DNA of 25,144 nucleotides, taken from positions 1 to 25,144 of IMG/VR virus record IMGVR_UViG_3300034993_000144; one strand, given 5' to 3'. The stretch comes from a virus (lineage: Duplodnaviria; Caudoviricetes). The notes below the pieces were generated by a model. The model saw only the letters and a list, made by a program, of their open reading frames with translations. It ran no database searches and had not been told where the DNA came from. This document shows positions 3,552-24,781 of the stretch, in pieces (position 1 is the first letter of the stretch; every line of letters starts with the position of its first letter). A program made the position numbers and the translations under genes.

Positions 3552-5659
3552 TGCAACTGCTCACCAAGGCCGCAACCAGCATCCGGCGCCGGACACGCGC
3601 GGGTGATTCTGTGACCGATCAGGTAGCGGCAGACCTGGCAGCACGGCAGTCCGGCAGAGCGTGGGGTGAGTTGCCGGTAGTCAAGCTCGGCGATCCGCAT
3701 GGGCCGATTGTCAATATCCCGATGAACAAGCTTGACCCGCTGGACTACACCCGCGCGCATTTGCTGCACATCGCACGAACACACGAGCTGGTGAATGCCT
3801 GTCTACGAATCAGGGCTGATCGGTTGATCAAGCCGCGCGTGACCGTCGAGCGCGCCACCGGGCCGGACGAGTGGCAACGCATCGAGCAACACCCCTTGCT
3901 TGACCTGATACGCGTTCCTGATGAACACCTGGATACTGCCGCGTTCTGGCGCTTTGTCAGCATGTCATGGGATGCGGTGGGCTATGTTTACCTGGAACCA
4001 ATCACCATCAGCGGGTTCCTGGTTGGTGTCAACCCGCTTGACCCGCAATACGTCAAAGAGTTCTATACCTCGGCTGGCAAGCTGGACTATTACGAGTGGT
4101 ATCCCGGCTACGGCGACCGTGTGATCTTCCAACCGGATCAACTCATCGTGAGACGCCGGCTGAATGACATTGACCCGGCTCCACTGATCTCGGCACTGTC
4201 TGCGGTTGAATCCGATCTGGCCTACACCGAGCATATCCGATCGTTCTTTGCGAACTCAGGCATACCACCGGGCATCGTGATTATCAAGGGCTCAGTCTCA
4301 CCGGAAGATTCGGATGCCATCAAAGAGAAGTGGCTGCTGGAACGCGGGCGAGGTGGCAAGTATCAGAACGCGCCAGTTGTGATGGGCAGTGACGATGCCA
4401 GCTATCAGGAGATTGGCTCAAAGCTGCAATCACTCGACAATGAGATTCTGCGCGAACTGATTGAGTCACGCATATTAATGCCATTCGGCGTCCCGCCAAT
4501 CGTGATCTACTCGTTTTTCGGACTGCGGCACGGCACCTACAGCAACGTTGACGAGGCCTGGAATAGCTTCTGGGAAAGCACAGTCGAAACTTTGCTCAGT
4601 GAGTGGGCCGATTTCCTGACGCGCGCCTTCCTGCCGTTCTATGAGAATCCCAATGATGTGCGGGCCGGCCTGGTCCGTGTGGCCTTCGATGTGTCCGGTA
4701 TCCCGGCCATGCAAGAGGACCGGACGGCAAGCGTGGCAATGGAGAAGGATGCCTACGACCAGGGCATTATCTCAATCAACGAGCGGCGTCAGGGTATGGG
4801 CATGGACCGCTTGAAAGAACCTGCCGCAGATAAGATTGAAGCACTGGTTGAGCCTGCATCAATCCCACCGCAACTGGCCGCCTTCACCGGGACCACACCA
4901 CCCACACCACCCACACCACCCCCTCCTGTTGAGCCAGTCGAGCCGGATGCGGCAAAGAGTCTGCGTATCGTGCATAACGTCAAAGCCAAGCCGAAACCGA
5001 CGCCACGGTTGGATGCAGATGTTGCCAAGTACCTCAAGGACGAGTACGCCAAAGCGCGGCGATTGGTCATCTCGGAAGGGCCAGCCGGCGCGCAAGTCGC
5101 ACTCGAAGATGTGCTTGATAACGGCACTGCGTTATTCGGCACGCTCGGACCAGCCGAGCGACGAGAATATGCTGACTCATGGCGTCAGGCCGCACTCAAA
5201 CTTAATTGGGATGTAACGCTTGATACTGCCGATATAGATAACGCGGTCGGCATTCTGGCCGAGCGGTGCGTGGGTATGGCTGGCACCACAAAGCAAGAAG
5301 TCAGTGATGTTATCAAGCAGGGCCACAAGGAACAATGGTCTGACGCGCAGATAGCCGAGAAGATCAGCCAGCTTGGGTTTGAGCGGTCAAAAGCACGCGC
5401 GCCACTGATCACCCGCACAGAGCTAGCAATCGCAAGCACGACAGCCGCGCGGGATGCGTACCAGGCCAGTGGCATTGTCTCCGAGCTTGAGTGGTTGACC
5501 GGACCTGATCCGTGTCCAGAGTGCCAGGAGCGTGACGGCAAACGGTACGCACTCGACAGCGCACCGGAGTTGCCAGCGCATCCCGCATGTAGGTGCGATT
5601 GGGCACCTATCGTCAGTGAATCACTTGTTATGTCGGAAGTTCCTGTAATGCAGACGTGA
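3548..5659 (+). CDS. Portal protein fused to a MuF-type (SPP1 gp7-like) minor head domain
   Basis: HK97-like portal motifs (HPLLDL, FFANSGIPPG, FGVPP, YSN, SINERR); Pro-rich linker; C-terminal ITRTE...W...CPEC...PAHPACRC. Confidence 0.88.
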   Translation: MMQLLTKAATSIRRRTRAGDSVTDQVAADLAARQSGRAWGELPVVKLGDPHGPIVNIPMNKLDPLDYTRAHLLHIARTHELVNACLRIRADRLIKPRVTVERATGPDEWQRIEQHPLLDLIRVPDEHLDTAAFWRFVSMSWDAVGYVYLEPITISGFLVGVNPLDPQYVKEFYTSAGKLDYYEWYPGYGDRVIFQPDQLIVRRRLNDIDPAPLISALSAVESDLAYTEHIRSFFANSGIPPGIVIIKGSVSPEDSDAIKEKWLLERGRGGKYQNAPVVMGSDDASYQEIGSKLQSLDNEILRELIESRILMPFGVPPIVIYSFFGLRHGTYSNVDEAWNSFWESTVETLLSEWADFLTRAFLPFYENPNDVRAGLVRVAFDVSGIPAMQEDRTASVAMEKDAYDQGIISINERRQGMGMDRLKEPAADKIEALVEPASIPPQLAAFTGTTPPTPPTPPPPVEPVEPDAAKSLRIVHNVKAKPKPTPRLDADVAKYLKDEYAKARRLVISEGPAGAQVALEDVLDNGTALFGTLGPAERREYADSWRQAALKLNWDVTLDTADIDNAVGILAERCVGMAGTTKQEVSDVIKQGHKEQWSDAQIAEKISQLGFERSKARAPLITRTELAIASTTAARDAYQASGIVSELEWLTGPDPCPECQERDGKRYALDSAPELPAHPACRCDWAPIVSESLVMSEVPVMQT

Positions 5660-6359
5660 TGATAGCAATACAGGCATCAATATCAAGGTTAATTTCATGA
5701 TCGGTGAAGCGAAAAACTCGAAAGCCACAGGCGCGCAGATAGGCATCTTTGCTGCTATCACGCCGCTGCTGCTTGACCGAGCTATGCCAGTAGGTGCCGT
5801 CACATTCGATGATGATCATGGCACCGACAATCGCAAAGTCGCAGAGGAACTTGCCACCGACAAGGTATTGCCCTTCTGCGGTGATGCCAGCCGCCTCAAG
5901 TGCGGATGCCATGCGACGTTCAATGCTGGTTGGTTGGCGCTGCTGCAAGATCAGGTTGGCATCAATGGACCGCTGGCGCGTGAGTTCAGGGTTGGCACGC
6001 TGCCACGCCGCAAACGTCGCGCTCGTCTGCTCACGTCGCGCATCGTTATCAACCCATTGGAGCGCGACGGCTTCGCTATATGTTCGCTTCTCAACACCGG
6101 CATCGGCAAAGAGTTTGATCGTCTGTTGCGGCTGGATGCCGAGCGAAAGCCCGATGGCTTTCTGAGACTCACCCGCCGCATAGCGTCGGCGAATGTGATC
6201 AAGCACATCCTCCCCAAGACGCGCCGACAGGGTTGCTCGATAGTTGAGACGGATCAGCCGTTTACCACAGATGGGCGAACAGGCAACAAGCGGGGCATCG
6301 TGGGACGGTTTGCGGCGAACAGGCGCACCACAGATCGCACAGGGCTTTATAATCGGCAT
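5628..6359 (-). CDS. Putative free-standing homing endonuclease: Zn finger + HTH + Vsr/DUF559 (EDxHD-like) nuclease
   Basis: CAIC...CSPIC, HTH-like middle, TSIE...CDF...IIECDGTYWH...RDSSKDAYL...VFRF; GGAGG RBS before ATG 6359. Confidence 0.85.
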   Translation of the reverse strand: MPIIKPCAICGAPVRRKPSHDAPLVACSPICGKRLIRLNYRATLSARLGEDVLDHIRRRYAAGESQKAIGLSLGIQPQQTIKLFADAGVEKRTYSEAVALQWVDNDARREQTSATFAAWQRANPELTRQRSIDANLILQQRQPTSIERRMASALEAAGITAEGQYLVGGKFLCDFAIVGAMIIIECDGTYWHSSVKQQRRDSSKDAYLRACGFRVFRFTDHEINLDIDACIAIITSALQELPT

Positions 6360-6429
6360 ACTGGCCTCCATCATAGGTCAGTCGTGCCACGGTCCGTTAC
6401 AGCGGATGCGTGGCTTTCTGATGCCATGA

Positions 6430-6438
6430 ATTATAACA
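6430..6438 (-). promoter_or_regulatory. Extended -10 promoter for the endonuclease cassette
   Basis: Minus strand TGtTATAAT, about 70 nt upstream of ATG 6359; no good -35. Confidence 0.7.
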
Positions 6439-6440
6439 CA

Positions 6441-6524
6441 CCGGCCTGTGTTTGTGATTACGCCCCAATCGTGTCCAGTGTGCTGGAAGTACCAGCGAAT
6501 GTACCAGCGGAGGTGGCAGCATGA
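6441..6524 (+). pseudogene. Displaced original 3' end of the portal-MuF gene
   Basis: Encodes PACVCDYAPIVSSVLEVPANVPAEVAA*, paralogous to PACRCDWAPIVS at 5582; ends in ATGA overlap with the protease start and carries its RBS (GGAGGT). Confidence 0.8.
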
Positions 6525-7408
6525 ATGATGACTACCGCGCGGCTGAGGCCGTAGCCGCGCTGCAATCCATAGACGCCGGGCGCATCGAGTACAAGGCCAA
6601 TGTGGATATCCCGGCGTTGTCTGTGGATGGCCGCGAGGTCACGACGCTGTGGAGTGTTGACTGCCTGGACGATGTTGGGGATATTACGCCGGTATCTGCC
6701 TTCTCTAGCGTTCTGACAGCAAAGCCGGAGAGCATACCGCATCTGTTCATGCACGAGATAACGCAACCAGCGATTGCCGTGGTTCGCAAAGTCGAGCCGG
6801 TCACGCGCGCCGATCTGCCGTCTGATGTGCAAGCCGCCTATCCGGAGGCCACTGGCGGTATGTCGAGCGTGTCAACGTTCCTGTCAACGCCGCGCGCCGA
6901 TGAAATCTTTCAAGGTATCAAGGCTGGCATCCCCTACCAGGCATCATTCGGCTACCGTGTCTTGCAGTCCACACCACACCGGCAGATCAAGCGCGCGGAT
7001 GGCAAGCCGGCGCGGGTGCTGAACCAACTGTACCTCTATGAGATTTCCACGACCCACAGCAACCATGCTGCACAGCCTGCGACCCGCGTCCGGCTCGGCA
7101 AGGCACTCGCACTGCTCGAAGAGTACAAAGCCGCGCTGGAAGGAATCAAGGCTGGCCGCAGACACTCAGAAACAGACATGGCGTGGATACGCCAGGGCGT
7201 GGAACTCGCCCGCCAGATTATGAATATGTTCGACGCATTGGGCGCCGACAACCTCCAACCGATTGTAGTTGCTGGTCCACCTGCCACGGTGGAAAGGACT
7301 CCAACGGTGGAACTGATAGCGGACATCAGGTCCATCCTAGGAGTCAGCAATGAGCAAGTCAGCGTACATGCTGCATCTGGAAAGCCAGATGCGGCCATTG
7401 GTGGATGA
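6521..7408 (+). CDS. HK97-type prohead maturation protease
   Basis: DDVGDI..SAF, LFMH, ASFGY, LYEIS motifs; lies between portal and capsid genes. Confidence 0.85.
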   Translation: MNDDYRAAEAVAALQSIDAGRIEYKANVDIPALSVDGREVTTLWSVDCLDDVGDITPVSAFSSVLTAKPESIPHLFMHEITQPAIAVVRKVEPVTRADLPSDVQAAYPEATGGMSSVSTFLSTPRADEIFQGIKAGIPYQASFGYRVLQSTPHRQIKRADGKPARVLNQLYLYEISTTHSNHAAQPATRVRLGKALALLEEYKAALEGIKAGRRHSETDMAWIRQGVELARQIMNMFDALGADNLQPIVVAGPPATVERTPTVELIADIRSILGVSNEQVSVHAASGKPDAAIGG

Positions 7409-8651
7409 GCTAGAAGAGCTCGAACAACTCGCACAGCCGTCCGATGGCGAGAAGTCACGCCAGGACGAGATCACAATCCAGCTCAAGGGGATGAAGGGCG
7501 AGTATGCCCGCGCGGACGAGCGGACGAAAGAATCCGAATCCGCGAAGGGCATCTATCTGGCAACGCAGGTAGAAGCCGAGCCGGCACGCGCGCGCACCGA
7601 CCGCCAGCAGATCGGGACCAGCCTTGCACTGGACACGAGCAAGGGCTGGTTCGATACCGTTGTCGAGTCCAAGTCCTTCAAACGCGGCATTGACGACATT
7701 ATGAATGTCCGTGAGTCCATGCCGCTGTCCAAGCTCTTTCCGGGCTTCTCTGAGCGCAAGGCCGTATTCATCCCGGGCAACCTGGATCGCTCTGGCGGCC
7801 TCGTCGATGTGTTCAATGAGGCAACGCAGCCACGCCGGCGCCATTCCGTGCTGGAGTTGATTCGCACGGTGCCAACCAACCAATACAACATCAACTATCT
7901 GCCGCTGACGTTCACCAACAATGCAGCGTCGGTTGCGCTCGGCCAGCCCAAACCAGAGAGCACCAACACCGGGCAGATCGAAACACTCACCCAAACGACC
8001 ATCGCACATTGGAAGGAAACCGTGCGGCAGGTGTTGAAATACATCCCGCAACTGCGCGGTGAGATTGAGACGGAGCTGAGTCAAGGTGTGCTTGACCGGC
8101 TAGAGAATCGTGTGATCCACGGCACGGGCATCGCACCGCAGATGAAGGGCGTGCTGGCACAGGTCACCAACACCGCAGCCGGCGCTGATCTGTTGGCACA
8201 GTTGTTCAATGCGGTATCTGCCGTTGAGTGGGCCGGTGGCGTGGTGGATGCCATTGTGGTCAACCCGCTCGATTGGGGCGAACTGCAACAGTACGAGTAC
8301 CTCAACAACGCAGTCAACCCGGTCATCACCGCCACAAGCTTCAACGGCTATCCGGTCGTCAAGTCGCGTTCACTGGCAGCCGGTCAGGCCATCGTCGGCG
8401 ACTGGTCAATGGCGGTCGTGCTGTATGTCGGCGATGCGCTGCGGGTCGATGTGACGGAAGCGTTGGGATTCAAGAGCAACATCGTCACCTTCCGGGCCGA
8501 GATGGACGCGGTTGTGCTGGTGAGCCGTCCGTGGCTGATGTACGTCTGCGACGGCCCGTTGCCGGCACCACCAGGAGGCGGGGCGCTCATGGCACGCTCG
8601 GCACAGACACGAGCAACCGATGAGCCAGCGGCGAAAAAGGGCAAGGAGTAG
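7350..8651 (+). CDS. Major capsid protein (HK97 fold) with N-terminal coiled-coil delta domain
   Basis: AGGAG RBS; KPES, TIAHW, IHGTG..QMKGVL, VVNPLDW, NGYPVV, AIVGDW, FKSNIVTFRAE motifs. Confidence 0.93.
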   Translation: MSKSAYMLHLESQMRPLVDELEELEQLAQPSDGEKSRQDEITIQLKGMKGEYARADERTKESESAKGIYLATQVEAEPARARTDRQQIGTSLALDTSKGWFDTVVESKSFKRGIDDIMNVRESMPLSKLFPGFSERKAVFIPGNLDRSGGLVDVFNEATQPRRRHSVLELIRTVPTNQYNINYLPLTFTNNAASVALGQPKPESTNTGQIETLTQTTIAHWKETVRQVLKYIPQLRGEIETELSQGVLDRLENRVIHGTGIAPQMKGVLAQVTNTAAGADLLAQLFNAVSAVEWAGGVVDAIVVNPLDWGELQQYEYLNNAVNPVITATSFNGYPVVKSRSLAAGQAIVGDWSMAVVLYVGDALRVDVTEALGFKSNIVTFRAEMDAVVLVSRPWLMYVCDGPLPAPPGGGALMARSAQTRATDEPAAKKGKE

Positions 8652-8654
8652 GCA

Positions 8655-8996
8655 ATGAGCACGATCTGCACAGTGTCAGAGTTGCGGCAATACCTGGATC
8701 AGATCGGCGTGAGTGCCGAGAAGGATGCGCTGTTGCAGGTGGTGCTTGACCGTGCGGAGGCGACGGTGACGCGCTACCTGACCGGCGTGACCATCGAAGC
8801 ACCCGCGCCGGAAGATATCAAGCAGATCGTGCTTGAGGTTGCGACCGGCTACCACCAGACACGCGGGGTAGTAGCCGGCACGCAATCTATGGGGCCGGAT
8901 GGTGTCGTGACGCTGGTGCCATCTGGTGGCCTCACAGGACCACAGAAGGCCGCACTCAGGCAGTACCGGATCGAGCAAGGCGCGATAGCTTTTTAG
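8655..8996 (+). CDS. Head-tail connector (gp6/gp15-like adaptor)
   Basis: CTVSELRQYL...DALLQ..LDRAE...PEDIKQIVLE; immediately after capsid gene. Confidence 0.8.
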   Translation: MSTICTVSELRQYLDQIGVSAEKDALLQVVLDRAEATVTRYLTGVTIEAPAPEDIKQIVLEVATGYHQTRGVVAGTQSMGPDGVVTLVPSGGLTGPQKAALRQYRIEQGAIAF

Positions 8997-9235
8997 CTTT
9001 GGGGCATAAGTCGGAGTTGTATACCCATGTGCTCGGATGAAACATCGACAGGAATACCAAAGAGGCTGACGTTGCCAATCGCGGAGAACACGATGGCTGT
9101 AGGTCGCAGCTCGTCAGTAATGTCCATCCAGATCGCTGGACTGATCTGCCAGAGGACCGGCGTATACCCGTCTGCCCGCAGGCTGTCTACCAGGTATCTG
9201 CATACGTCACGATGGCTCAAGTCACGCTCACCCAT
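8993..9235 (-). CDS. 80-aa protein resembling an isolated HK97 capsid A-domain
   Basis: Pattern DSLRADGYTPVLWQISPAIWMDI...SLFGIPVDVS parallels the MCP segment AVEWAGGVVDAIVVNPLDWGEL...SFNGYPVVKS; has its own predicted promoter. Confidence 0.65.
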   Translation of the reverse strand: MGERDLSHRDVCRYLVDSLRADGYTPVLWQISPAIWMDITDELRPTAIVFSAIGNVSLFGIPVDVSSEHMGIQLRLMPQS

Positions 9236-9241
9236 GAGGCA

Positions 9242-9250
9242 ATTCTAGCA
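9242..9250 (-). promoter_or_regulatory. Extended -10 promoter, leaderless transcript
   Basis: Minus strand TGcTAGAAT followed 6 nt later by ATG 9235; no SD. Confidence 0.7.
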
Positions 9251-9269
9251 TGTGCGGGATAGCGTTCTG

Positions 9270-9485
9270 ATGCGAACTGAGGACGAGCTACGCGCCGAGC
9301 TTGCAAGGGCAAAGAGCCTCCTGCGCGACGTGCTAGCGCAGTATCCAGATACGCATTGGCTGCCGTCTCAGTGGCACGGATACATCATGGCGCTCGAATG
9401 GATGATACCTGTCGGCAAGTTCAAGATGATGGAAACCAGACGTAGGCAACGGGCCGAAAAGGAACGCGCCGATGGCAGCAGATGA
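9270..9485 (+). CDS. Hypothetical protein
   Basis: MRTEDELRAELARAK...; ATG 9270 in a TGATG junction; overlaps next gene. Confidence 0.6.
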   Translation: MRTEDELRAELARAKSLLRDVLAQYPDTHWLPSQWHGYIMALEWMIPVGKFKMMETRRRQRAEKERADGSR

Positions 9486-9897
9486 CTTCACCCGCGTTGC
9501 CGGCCAGCTTGAACGCCTGGTCCCAAAGACGTTGCCGGATGCAATGCATGCAGTCGTTTTGCAGGGTGTCGCCATTATGAAACGTGAGACGCCACGCAAG
9601 ACAGGCCGTCTGTCGAGGTCGATCAATGGCCGGGTTGAAGCGCAAGGCAAACGTGGCATCGTGGATACCAACGTGGCCTACGCGACTGCCGTTGACGAGG
9701 GGTCACCACGGCGCGACATCGTACCTCGACGAGCAAAGGCGCTGTTCTGGAAGGGTGCGCGGCATCCGGTCCGCAAGGTCACGATACCAGCGCGGAAGGG
9801 GCGGCACTTCAAACAGCACACGGTAGAACGACTGCGACCAATCGCCGAGAAGGAACTGAGTCAGGTGTTCGGGCAAGCTTTGGGGCGTATCTCGTGA
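9472..9897 (+). CDS. HK97 gp10-like neck/tail-completion protein
   Basis: TPRKTGRLSRSI, TNVAYATAVDEG, KALFW, HPVRKV motifs. Confidence 0.85.
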   Translation: MAADDFTRVAGQLERLVPKTLPDAMHAVVLQGVAIMKRETPRKTGRLSRSINGRVEAQGKRGIVDTNVAYATAVDEGSPRRDIVPRRAKALFWKGARHPVRKVTIPARKGRHFKQHTVERLRPIAEKELSQVFGQALGRIS

Positions 9898-10580: not shown

Positions 10581-11579
10581 GTGGAGATTGCCTTCGAGGA
10601 ATTTTTGGGTGCACTTGAGGTCACGCGCGGGACGGTGATCCCGGTCCCAACACATAGCTTCTATCTGGGCGGGACCATCCAACAGGCGATGGACGTGTAC
10701 CGCAAGACCATCACGGACGGCACCCTGGAGCTGTACGCATCGGAGACGATCACCCGCAAGTGGTCGGAGTGGCAAGTCAGCGGCGCGATTGACACCTACA
10801 ATGCGCCGTTCTGGTTCAATATGCTGGTCAAGCCAGTAACCACTGGTGTGGCACCACCAGGTGGCACCACCTCGCGGCTATGGACCTTCACGCCGATAGT
10901 AACCTCTGATGTGCAGAAATCGGCAACGCTGTTCTTTGGCGATCCGAACGTGCAAATCTGGCAAGCCGCGTATTCGATGGCCGATGCGTTCACCATCACG
11001 AGCGATGCTACTGGCACGGATCCGGTGATGATTGAAATAAACGGGATGGGGCAACCCATGACCAAAGTCTCCGATCCGGTTGTGCCGACGCGGGCCGTGG
11101 GCGATGCGTTGCTGCCGACCTATATGCAATGCTGGATTGATACCGGGGCAGGCGTCATCGGGACAACCGAGGTTGTCTCACGGCTGGTATCGGCAACGCT
11201 CTCGGCAGACCTGACACGGACACGCAAGTTTCTCCCAGGTGGGCCGACGAGCGGTCTGAGCTTCAACCGGACGGGCGTCGGCAAACGCGCCGCGACGAGT
11301 ACGCTGCGGTTCGAGGTTCCCGATACAGCCGAGTGGGATCTGATGGACGCCGGGACACCGTGCAAAGTCAGGGTCCGCATCAGCGGGGCACCAATCGCAG
11401 CTGATCCGGGCCAATATCACTATATCCAATGGGACATTTTTGGTATCCTCGCGGAACCCGCGTGGGGTGAGTTTGAAACAACCAACCGGACCTTAGACGT
11501 GACCATCACCAGCACCAAAGATGCGACGGTTGGCTATAGCTGGGCATTGTATGTTCAGTCGAATCGGACGACGCTATGA
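10581..11579 (+). CDS. Major tail (tube) protein
   Basis: 332 aa, Thr/Gly-rich beta protein preceding chaperones and tape measure. Confidence 0.8.
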   Translation: MEIAFEEFLGALEVTRGTVIPVPTHSFYLGGTIQQAMDVYRKTITDGTLELYASETITRKWSEWQVSGAIDTYNAPFWFNMLVKPVTTGVAPPGGTTSRLWTFTPIVTSDVQKSATLFFGDPNVQIWQAAYSMADAFTITSDATGTDPVMIEINGMGQPMTKVSDPVVPTRAVGDALLPTYMQCWIDTGAGVIGTTEVVSRLVSATLSADLTRTRKFLPGGPTSGLSFNRTGVGKRAATSTLRFEVPDTAEWDLMDAGTPCKVRVRISGAPIAADPGQYHYIQWDIFGILAEPAWGEFETTNRTLDVTITSTKDATVGYSWALYVQSNRTTL

Positions 11580-12010
11580 CCATCTCGGCATTTGTAGACA
11601 CAACCCGGCTGGCCGTCACTGATGGCGACGATACGATCTATATCAAGCCGCGGATGGATTATGGAACGTGGTGCAGAGTGCGCGACACGCTGGCACGCAT
11701 GGCGATTGCCAACGGCCAGGTCGGTGAGTTGCACGTCACCACCGGCAGTCAGGAGCTCGCACTGGCGATACACAATATAGTCGGTTGGGATGGACCCGCG
11801 TTCGTGGACCCGATGACCAAACGAGCAGTGCCATGTACGCCGGAGAACATCGAGCGATTGGAACGGATGCTTCCGGTGTTTATCAAGGCGCGCGAGAAGA
11901 TCAACGAGGTTAACACGGATGCAATGCCTGACCCAAACGCATCGACCGCTGGCTCTCAGTCCTCGATGGTAAGGCTGGTGAGACCGGCGGAAGCTATGAC
12001 CTCTACGTGA
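11576..12010 (+). CDS. Tail assembly chaperone (gpG-like)
   Basis: IVGWDG...PCTPENIERL motif; between tube and tape measure; contains slippery site. Confidence 0.85.
   Translation: MTISAFVDTTRLAVTDGDDTIYIKPRMDYGTWCRVRDTLARMAIANGQVGELHVTTGSQELALAIHNIVGWDGPAFVDPMTKRAVPCTPENIERLERMLPVFIKAREKINEVNTDAMPDPNASTAGSQSSMVRLVRPAEAMTST
11932..11938 (+). other. Programmed -1 frameshift heptamer C CCA AAC
   Basis: X XXY YYZ in the correct phase; the -1 frame is open from 11932 to 12228. Confidence 0.85.
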
Positions 12011-12228
12011 TCTTTGCGGACGCGTATCACTGGACACCGGACCAGGTTGACCGGATGCCGGCGCAGTTTGTCGCTGAGCTGCTGGCGTACCGCACGGCTC
12101 AGGGCGACCATGCTGTGCAGGAGGCCGACCTCGACAGCAATGCCCGTGAGCGCAGACAGAAAGCACTCATCACAAAGCGAAAGATCGCAATTATGAAACG
12201 CAGGAACGGTGATGGCAAGCACCGCTGA
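11932..12228 (+). CDS. Tail chaperone frameshift extension (gpT-like)
   Basis: -1 frame RIDRWLSVLDG...YHWTPDQVDRMP, a typical gpT motif. Confidence 0.8.
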   Translation, partial: PKRIDRWLSVLDGKAGETGGSYDLYVIFADAYHWTPDQVDRMPAQFVAELLAYRTAQGDHAVQEADLDSNARERRQKALITKRKIAIMKRRNGDGKHR

Positions 12229-14425
12229 ACTGAACCTGGTCATTGGCGTTGTCGATAAGGCCTCCGCTGGTCTGAGTAAGATCGGCGGGAGTTTAGGCAC
12301 CATCGGGAAAGCGGTGGGCGGCCTGGCGTTCGGTGGTGCAATCGTGGGGGCGGGTGCGCTGGGTGCCGCGCTCGCGTCCGGCATCGGGGATGCCAGAGAA
12401 GCCAACCTGGTCATGGCACAAACGCAAGCGGTTATCGAAAGTACAGGTGGCGCGGCGGGATTCTCGGCAGAACAGATCGCGGATATGGCGGGGTCATTGT
12501 CGGCAGCATCGGGCAAGAGTTTATTTGGCGACGACGACATCCAACGTGGTCAAAATATGCTTCTTACTTTTACGAACATCACCGCCAAACTCCCCGATAC
12601 CACGCAGGTCATGCTCGACATGGCGCAGGCGCTCGGCACGGATGCGGGCGGCGCTGCTGTCCAGCTCGGCAAGGCGCTCAACAATCCGATTGAGGGCGTG
12701 AGTGCGCTTACGAAGGTCGGCGTGACCTTCACCAAGGAACAGAAGGAACAGATCAAGGCCATGCAACTGGCCGGGGATATGGCCGGAGCGCAGGCGGTCA
12801 TCCTTGCAGAACTCAATAAAGAGTTTGGCGGGTCTGCTGCTGCTGCTGCTAAGGCCGATGGTGGCATGGCGCAGTTTACCGACAGCATGGGGGAACTCGC
12901 GGAGAGCGTCGGCGCGCAGGTGTTGCCGGCCTTAAACGGCATGATGGCCTGGTTGAACAGTCCAGAGATACAGGCCGGGATCGAGTCGCTCGTCGATGGT
13001 CTGGTCAACGGGCTGGGTGCCGCGTTCACCTGGCTGTCCGACACAGCGATCCCGGCAATCGTGACACCGATCATGAATGCCGCACACGCCTTCAATCTCT
13101 GGAGCAACTTCACCGGCATCGCGGGCGGTATCCAGGCGGCGCTCCAATCAATCGGTGAGTCTGTTCCGTTCCTTGAGCCGCTGACGACCTGGCTGAGCGA
13201 TGTGCTCCCCGGCGCTATCAGTCTCGCCGTGACCGCCTTCAATCTTGTACGAGATAGTGTGCTGACCTTTATCGCCGCCTATAACGGCGAGTGGCAGAAC
13301 AGCGACAAGATCCTGCTGATCAACCAGGCGTTTGGAGTGCTTGGGCAAGTGCTCGGCGGGGTCGTCGTGCCTGCGATCCAGAGCGTGATCACCGCCTTCG
13401 GGGAGTGGGTAACAGCCATGGGGGGGGTCTCAGGTATTCTTACGACCGTCTCTGCGTTCGTCAGCGACAATCTAGCGGCGATCCTGTCATCCCTCGCCGC
13501 TATGCTGATCACCGTGGTTGTCCCGGCGTTTGTGGCCTGGTCCGTTGCGGCTGCAACGGCGGCTGTGGCAACCATTACCGCACTCGCGCCGGTCCTGCTG
13601 CCAATCGCGGCCATCGGCGCGGCGGTCGGTCTGCTCGTCACCATCTGGGATCGTGATTGGGGCGGGATGCGTACCACCATCACAACCTGGTGGAATACTG
13701 ATGTCGCACCGATCCTTTTGGCGGTCAAAGCGTGGCTCGACGAGAAGATACCAGCCGCCAATCTCGCTATGAAAACAGCCTGGGAAACAGCATGGACCGC
13801 GATCAAGACTGCGATTGATACCGCCTGGTCATGGATGCAAACCAACGTCTTTCCGCTCCTGATAGCTGCGATGAAGCTGGTTGGCACGACCATCGACACG
13901 CTCAAATCAGATTGGGATACAGCATGGACGGCGATCAAGAACGCGATAAGCACGGCATGGACATTCATGCAAACCGATGTCTTTCCGCTGATCAACACCG
14001 CGATTGACCTGGTTGGAACGACCATCTCAACGCTTCAATCAGCCTGGGGTACAGCGTGGAGCGCGATTACTGGCGCGGTATCTGCCGCATCGTCAACCAT
14101 TTCCGGCATCATCGAAGGGATTATGAATGCGATCCGGACTGCGATTGACGCTATCAACGAACTCATTCGTCTGATCAGCCTCATACCGGGCGTCGAGCTA
14201 CCGCCTATACCGGGCGGCTCGGAGAGCAAGAGTCTACCAGGGGCGACGGGAGAGCAACCGCTCACGAGCCAGTCATTAACCCCTATACCGCTTGGGGCAG
14301 GCGGCGGGAGTCTCACCACGAATAACATTGTGATCTACCAGCTACCAGGCGAGGATACGCGGGTGTTGGCGGGCCGCGTGGCAGATGAAATCGACCGGCG
14401 TAACCGGCTGGCGAGGACGAGATAA
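12212..14425 (+). CDS. Tape measure protein
   Basis: LVIGVVDKAS N-terminus, Ala/Gly-rich helices, LGKALNNP, Trp-periodic ~40-aa repeats at about 13780-14070. Confidence 0.92.
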   Translation: MASTAELNLVIGVVDKASAGLSKIGGSLGTIGKAVGGLAFGGAIVGAGALGAALASGIGDAREANLVMAQTQAVIESTGGAAGFSAEQIADMAGSLSAASGKSLFGDDDIQRGQNMLLTFTNITAKLPDTTQVMLDMAQALGTDAGGAAVQLGKALNNPIEGVSALTKVGVTFTKEQKEQIKAMQLAGDMAGAQAVILAELNKEFGGSAAAAAKADGGMAQFTDSMGELAESVGAQVLPALNGMMAWLNSPEIQAGIESLVDGLVNGLGAAFTWLSDTAIPAIVTPIMNAAHAFNLWSNFTGIAGGIQAALQSIGESVPFLEPLTTWLSDVLPGAISLAVTAFNLVRDSVLTFIAAYNGEWQNSDKILLINQAFGVLGQVLGGVVVPAIQSVITAFGEWVTAMGGVSGILTTVSAFVSDNLAAILSSLAAMLITVVVPAFVAWSVAAATAAVATITALAPVLLPIAAIGAAVGLLVTIWDRDWGGMRTTITTWWNTDVAPILLAVKAWLDEKIPAANLAMKTAWETAWTAIKTAIDTAWSWMQTNVFPLLIAAMKLVGTTIDTLKSDWDTAWTAIKNAISTAWTFMQTDVFPLINTAIDLVGTTISTLQSAWGTAWSAITGAVSAASSTISGIIEGIMNAIRTAIDAINELIRLISLIPGVELPPIPGGSESKSLPGATGEQPLTSQSLTPIPLGAGGGSLTTNNIVIYQLPGEDTRVLAGRVADEIDRRNRLARTR

Positions 14426-22024: not shown

Positions 22025-22459
22025 TTACAAATCCATCGCCTGCTTCCCTGCGTTACATTCGGCGCATAGGGTCCAAAGGTTATCGTCTGTGTTCAGGCCA
22101 CCTTTTGCCACGGGGATTCGATGATCGACTTCGAGTGTCATATCATCGCTTGCCCTGGCGCCACAAATCTGGCACCGATAGCTATCGCGTTTCAAGATCA
22201 GAAATCGCGTCTTTGGTGAGACGGGATCTCGACGTCGCGGCCCCTTCTGGCGCCGGAAGCGTACGTGTTGAGAACGGCATTGGCAGCACACGGCACCGAT
22301 ACTGTACTGGCCTTTGCGGATCGCAACGACGAAATGACCGATCTCAACTGCTCTCCTGCAGGTCAGACACGCCCGCACATATTGGTGATCGAGCAACCTG
22401 TTACGAACTCGGGGTGGCAGAGCGTCAACAGGATAGTCACAAAATCGGCAAGTGTCCAT
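22025..22459 (-). CDS. HNH endonuclease with N-terminal Cys pairs
   Basis: RDSYRCQICG...LEVDHRIPVAKGG...NLWTLCAECNAGK; AGGAG RBS. Confidence 0.9.
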   Translation of the reverse strand: MDTCRFCDYPVDALPPRVRNRLLDHQYVRACLTCRRAVEIGHFVVAIRKGQYSIGAVCCQCRSQHVRFRRQKGPRRRDPVSPKTRFLILKRDSYRCQICGARASDDMTLEVDHRIPVAKGGLNTDDNLWTLCAECNAGKQAMDL

Positions 22460-24427: not shown

Positions 24428-24544
24428 GCATTTAACGGTGCTCCCGTTCAGGCGATTCTAGCACGGGGTTCGTACTGGCCGAGATAGTCAATCACACACG
24501 TCTCGCACCAGGGGCGCGCGTACATATCAAGAATATACGGCTCG

Positions 24545-24781
24545 TCATTGGCGATCCGTTCCTTGCACATAAGACACGTCAGAATCGGTGTTGCTTTTGC
24601 TGGCATCGGGCGATTCTAGCACAACTTGCTCTTGCTCTTCTGCCATCTTCTTGAGCTCGACAAGGACGGCATGCAGCAACCGCGCCGCTACATCCTGCGT
24701 TCGCATCCTCGGACCCTCAGAGCGGGCCATCTCCATGAGTTGGTCGAGGTCGTCCATTGAAAGCGGAACATAGAGCTTCAT
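24545..24781 (-). CDS. Putative ribbon-helix-helix DNA-binding protein
   Basis: MKLYVPLS (strand), DDLDQLMEMARSE (helix), TQDVAARLLHAVL (helix); GAGGTGA RBS. Confidence 0.6.
   Translation of the reverse strand: MKLYVPLSMDDLDQLMEMARSEGPRMRTQDVAARLLHAVLVELKKMAEEQEQVVLESPDASKSNTDSDVSYVQGTDRQ

Follow-up and report, generated by a model that had tools for sequence, protein, structure and literature searches.

Within a 25,144-base virus record from an uncultured sediment phage (IMGVR_UViG_3300034993_000144; the whole record is the window analysed here), we identify a small antisense gene, inserted at the junction of the head-tail adaptor and neck genes, whose 80-residue product is very probably a stand-alone A-domain of the HK97 capsid fold. 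As judged from its sequence, the open reading frame (ORF) is an intact accessory gene. The fold is well supported, and from it we infer a function, tentatively that of a decoy for immune sensors of phage capsids. Gene order in the window is siphovirus-like (Table 1), and near-identical DNA is present in sediment and groundwater metagenomes.

The first-pass annotation had located this ORF and quoted two peptide segments of its product as resembling the phage's own capsid. The ORF and both segments lie where it placed them; the spacer between the segments is 16 residues rather than the 14 it gave, equal to the capsid's 16. In codon score (0.08, a low value, versus −0.02 to −0.40) the ORF's own frame ranks first among all six, and its GC123 of 0.59/0.42/0.62 is gene-like. 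An exhaustive search of 1.84 billion representatives returned five matches at E ≤ 0.001: the protein itself, two repeat proteins, which were dropped, and two full-length stand-alone proteins. These homologs (77 and 82 residues, on short contigs of 1.4 and 1.9 kb) align end to end at 41–43% identity, with common start and end, and the motifs WQ(I/F)SPA(M/I)W and L(F/W)G(I/L)PV are common to the three family members.

The by-eye alignment to the capsid is gap-free, setting residues 9–66 on capsid residues 282–339 with 11 of 58 identical (19%). As a pairwise match it is not significant: BLASTP of sequence against sequence returns E values of 0.41–20, at chance level, and the single sequence gives E = 0.052 against a profile of 15 capsids (own, two relatives and 12 picked among 30 listed of 356 GenBank matches). 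The register itself was correct and is confirmed by the family profile. Comparison of the three-member family with whole capsids (PF05065, phrog_10) by hhalign, a directed test of family against capsids and not a library search, gave a score of 32.4 (E = 8.2e-5) in the same register as the by-eye alignment, and E = 1.1e-5 against the A-domain block. None of 303 column shuffles (maximum 21.4) and none of 303 five-column block shuffles (maximum 29.6) reached 32.4, and the reversed control scored 12.9. The register common to family and capsids runs through a helix, a hydrophobic strand, a (N/S)PxxW helix and a L(F/W)G(I/L)PV strand. The match is limited to the A-domain stretch of the capsid; the N-arm, E-loop, spine helix and P-domain of HK97 capsids are absent from the 80-residue protein, which is also encoded on the strand opposite to the capsid gene, with a promoter motif of its own. 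In an unbiased search of 38,880 families, one homolog (P0004) has two matches, one of them a weak one to phrog_10, the major head protein (E = 0.43), and a feature-based comparison of P0005 finds similar small unnamed clusters.

The ESM Atlas model of the protein is of middling quality (predicted local distance difference test, pLDDT, 0.69; predicted template-modelling score, pTM, 0.57) and matches an HK97 capsid cluster with a template-modelling score (TM) of 0.75 over 75 residues. Eight Atlas rows were listed: four are clusters with capsid Pfam families, three are unnamed clusters of 73–85-residue proteins from phages and bacteria (146, 58 and 112 members; TM 0.69–0.78) and one is cyanobacterial DUF2396 (row 5; TIGR02652, PF09654; TM 0.74 over 75 residues). 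DUF2396 may, on this model comparison, hold a domesticated capsid A-domain.

A hidden Markov model (HMM) of the family scores 11 of 12 foreign capsids at 4.4–11.8 bits and the twelfth at −1.2, versus −0.9 to 0.0 bits for three capsids of the phage's own lineage. The family motif L(F/W)G(I/L)PV is as in most HK97-type capsids, and this phage's capsid has FNGYPV. Since foreign capsids score higher, and judging also by the motifs, the small protein is no duplicate of the phage's own capsid adapted to its shell.

The gene lies in a 476–478-base-pair insertion at the adaptor/neck junction. In two close relatives without it (G001 and G003, 74–87% capsid identity), the stop of the adaptor gene and the start of the neck gene overlap, and a clean gap at 8993–9470 shows in blastn; contigs from two of eight runs (X7 and X12) likewise connect 8995 straight to 9472. 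The A-domain gene is present in none of five related records (three of them fragments). Because the insertion is missing from G001, G003 and the X7 and X12 contigs, the gene is, by this comparison, dispensable and variable. Other small genes occupy the junction in L005 (7637–7665) and L011 (4828–5004), and by gene order the junction is a hotspot for accessory genes.

The second part of the insertion is a 71-residue orphan gene, also missing in G001 and G003; homolog searches with its product return only itself, and it belongs to no PHROG, NCBIfam or PADLOC family. Also inside the insertion is a stranded copy of the ancestral adaptor 3′ end, ATAGCGTTCTGATG, a 14-base match expected by chance at about 1e-6 in 475 bases. 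We infer a two-step history: the 71-residue gene would first have entered at the stop/start overlap, and the antisense gene, with ~23 upstream bases, would then have entered just ahead of the adaptor's last codons.

The motif TGCTAGAAT lies 6 nucleotides before the ATG of the A-domain gene, as claimed in the first-pass annotation. Neither a Shine-Dalgarno sequence nor a −35 hexamer was found upstream of this ATG, and a sigma-70 scan, which requires a −35, does not list the site. In Mycobacterium, promoters with an extended −10 and no −35 are established (PMC3898074), and the ~23-base upstream piece fits a promoter needing no −35. The window holds 33 copies of the loose motif TGnTAnnnT, and by our arithmetic the chance of one 5–7 nucleotides before a given ATG is ~0.2%. 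The tighter TGCTAGAATYGCC, a pattern set after the sites were seen, occurs three times in the window versus 0.06 expected. The other two copies fall inside ORFs. One sister site persists in G001, G002 and G003, unchanged in position, as TGGTACAAT or TGGTAGAAT; the arrangement of motif, 6 nucleotides and ATG recurs in these three genomes. Transcription by host polymerase from an extended −10 promoter, giving a leaderless mRNA, is predicted as probable. The scan found no terminator-like site 3′ of the gene, so a transcript would extend, in antisense orientation, into the adaptor gene. What holds of the earlier claim of independent expression is that an accessory gene has been inserted and is preceded by an extended −10-like motif; expression itself is a prediction. 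Two further TGCTAGAATCGCC sites lie 158 bases apart on the minus strand (24451–24463 and 24609–24621), the upper one 6 nucleotides before an ORF for a 52-residue Cys-rich protein (24448–24606), a position conserved in G003.

Family 4 encapsulins (PF08967; PDB 2PK8) likewise consist of an A-domain only, two helices around a small sheet (PMC8346489). They are ~100-residue chromosomal proteins of thermophilic archaea and Bacteroidetes, the archaeal ones encoded downstream of an enzyme (PMC8346489), whereas the gene described here sits in a phage insertion between adaptor and neck genes with no enzyme. Its product has no match to PF08967 (DUF1884/ENCP4) at E ≤ 1. On both counts, identity as a family 4 encapsulin is ruled out, and the comparison drawn in the first-pass annotation survives as an analogy of architecture. 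Ccm of SaPIbov5 is a satellite-encoded capsid homolog that occupies shell pentamers and interferes with phage head assembly (PMC8569155); the present protein, unlike Ccm, is a single domain, and the phage that encodes it has a full set of head and tail genes of its own. The Tab/anti-Tab system of Pseudomonas phage JBD26 pairs a dispensable minus-strand gene that has its own promoter with a small plus-strand gene in the late operon (PMC10884400). The A-domain gene and its 71-residue neighbour have this layout, with promoter and partnership predicted. Tab itself sits between the two terminase genes, small and large, and has the tape measure protein as its target (PMC10884400), whereas the A-domain gene is set apart by its position at the adaptor/neck junction and by a capsid-derived product.

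We tentatively propose that the free A-domain is a coat-protein mimic that could act as a decoy for A-domain-binding sensors such as Avs7, Avs8 and Avs10. The A-domain's two main helices make up the subunit interface in capsid facets (PMC8346489), and these three sensors bind this capsomer-interface surface on capsid monomers (10.64898/2026.01.04.697583). The small protein is predicted to keep both helices and would thus occupy the sensor's binding site; without P-domain and E-loop, it would neither drive sensor activation nor build a shell. A host-type promoter would supply it before late capsid protein appears. The kept helices, the binding of Avs7, Avs8 and Avs10 to that interface and the early action expected of the promoter are why we favour a decoy. 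Avs7, Avs8 and Avs10 differ from the protein in being sensors themselves, not decoys, and a term search of the main text of the Avs paper returned no phage decoy (10.64898/2026.01.04.697583).

Several points weigh against a decoy. Isolated core segments sufficed to activate Avs18 and Avs19 (10.64898/2026.01.04.697583), and by analogy a free A-domain might trigger a sensor, not block it; Avs7 also contacts the P-domain and E-loop (10.64898/2026.01.04.697583). Avs sensors are a proposed target class. The HMM bit scores are small and derive from three sequences, and all eight Atlas rows, the capsid row included, fall below the tool's naming bar. Our own AlphaFold models (pLDDT 49–51) show helix–strand–helix–strands at a confidence too low for fold search, and searches with them were uninformative on solved capsid structures; the A-domain-like fold of the first-pass annotation thus stands on the profile–profile comparison with its controls and on the Atlas search, and is not confirmed by these models. 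Finally, the gene layout resembles that of tab/anti-tab, a defence against other phages.

That layout underlies the main rival explanation, which we consider possible and less probable than a decoy. Here a lysogen or carrier cell would make the free A-domain constitutively, and through its helices the domain would join the capsomers of an invading phage and poison head assembly; the late-made product of the 71-residue plus-strand neighbour would neutralise it in the phage's own lytic cycle. Both genes are dispensable, as are tab and anti-tab (PMC10884400), and the orphan's placement would suit an antidote. The family is more like foreign capsids than like the phage's own, and the helices that it keeps are those of the facet interface (PMC8346489). 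A tyrosine integrase is encoded by three of four relatives, and by this gene content the lineage is temperate. The record itself, linear and perhaps incomplete, lacks any match to an integrase or resolvase (PF00589, PF00239), and an HNH endonuclease gene (22025–22459, minus strand) occupies the place of G003's tyrosine integrase (L033 11220–12125); with no integrase match in the record, a role during infection is favoured over lysogen defence. Two further observations count against a poison–antidote pair: the 71-residue gene begins at the ancestral adaptor stop/start overlap, suggesting a separate, earlier arrival, and other relatives carry unrelated genes in the slot without the A-domain gene.

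Rather doubtful, to our mind, is that a capsid-derived domain was re-used for an unrelated job, such as serving a host enzyme as scaffold or chaperone, a role proposed for family 4 encapsulins, or that a different fold carries a convergent motif. Family 4 A-domain proteins do sit with enzymes (PMC8346489), the Atlas model matches DUF2396 as well as capsids, and the single-sequence evidence given above is weak; yet the cassette has no enzyme gene, its context is that of a phage accessory gene, and the profile register reproduces the capsid NPxDW and lwGlPV motifs beyond both shuffle controls. Besides a decoy and a blocker of competing phages, the first-pass annotation had offered a capsid-size modulator. 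The A-domain homology, a position 340 bases downstream of the capsid gene and the capacity of capsid homologs to redirect assembly (PMC8569155) would suit a part in the phage's own capsid, as modulator or minor component, controlling size or vertices as Ccm does. Such a role is nevertheless unlikely, the gene being antisense to the late operon and missing from relatives with 74–87% capsid identity, one of them of similar record length (25.9 versus 25.1 kb), and the protein having no P-domain or E-loop and belonging to a family nearer to foreign capsids than to those of its own lineage, which score lowest. A chance antisense ORF or decaying debris is very improbable: the codon score is low and the gene shows no variation among runs from which selection could be measured, but the ORF is intact, fills its part of the insertion without a competing long ORF and has homologs of the same length at 41–43% identity that share its start and end.

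Table 1. Positions of the A-domain gene, its insertion and the flanking head-tail genes in the window
Feature	Position	Strand	Basis or remark
Stand-alone protein (P0001), 80 residues, predicted HK97-fold A-domain (helix-strand-helix-loop-strands)	8993..9235	−	codon score, homologs, hhalign, Atlas
Predicted extended −10 promoter TGCTAGAAT (9250-9242) plus 6 nucleotides to ATG, leaderless arrangement	9236..9250	−	sequence
Six-codon ORF (MCGIAF-stop) holding ATAGCGTTCTGATG	9250-9270	+	stop overlaps next ATG, keeping stop/start overlap for the 71-residue gene
Stranded copy of ancestral adaptor 3′ end, ATAGCGTTCTGATG	9259..9272	+	exact 14-base match to adaptor ends of L004 and L005
71-residue orphan gene (P0007), second part of insertion, in late operon	9270..9485	+	candidate antidote or unrelated earlier insertion
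Terminase, portal and protease, then capsid, adaptor, neck and tail genes		+	siphovirus-like head-tail block
HK97-fold major capsid protein	7350..8651	+	PF05065, phrog_10; matching A-domain stretch 8187-8375
Head-tail adaptor (Ad1), left flank	8655..8996	+	PF05135, phrog_137; its stop and that of the small gene share 4 bases
Tail completion/Neck1 protein, right flank	9472..9897	+	PF04883, phrog_5

The head block holds a second antisense gene, for a DUF559/Vsr-like endonuclease (5628–6374, minus strand), between portal and protease. It is preceded by a TGTTATAAT motif at 6438 and, with a blastn gap to G002 at 5584–6445, looks like another insertion. The middle of the tape measure gene (12937–14302) has no blastn match to G003, both flanks being 84–87% identical. 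Ahead of this gene, at 11576–12228, a short ORF follows and overlaps a tail assembly chaperone-like ORF, an arrangement usual for programmed frameshifting.

In the literature searched, we found no description of phage-encoded stand-alone A-domains. There is a reasonable, though not preponderant, case for placing the gene in a class of phage 'mini-capsid' conflict proteins that would be widespread and as yet undescribed. Such free A-domains would present the surface on which several sensors meet, thereby silencing capsid-sensing immunity or poisoning rival heads, here possibly with a late-expressed adjoining antidote. The capsid A-domain is recognised by several bacterial immune sensors because phages cannot easily change it. 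If the decoy reading is true, producing a free A-domain before the capsid would amount to a general counter-measure that works by mimicking a fold, and at 80 residues the protein makes this idea directly testable against published sensor panels; if it is rival head assembly that is blocked, the protein would be a head-directed counterpart of Tab. Either reading assigns a fold to unnamed clusters of small proteins that have hundreds of members, and offers a hypothesis for them.
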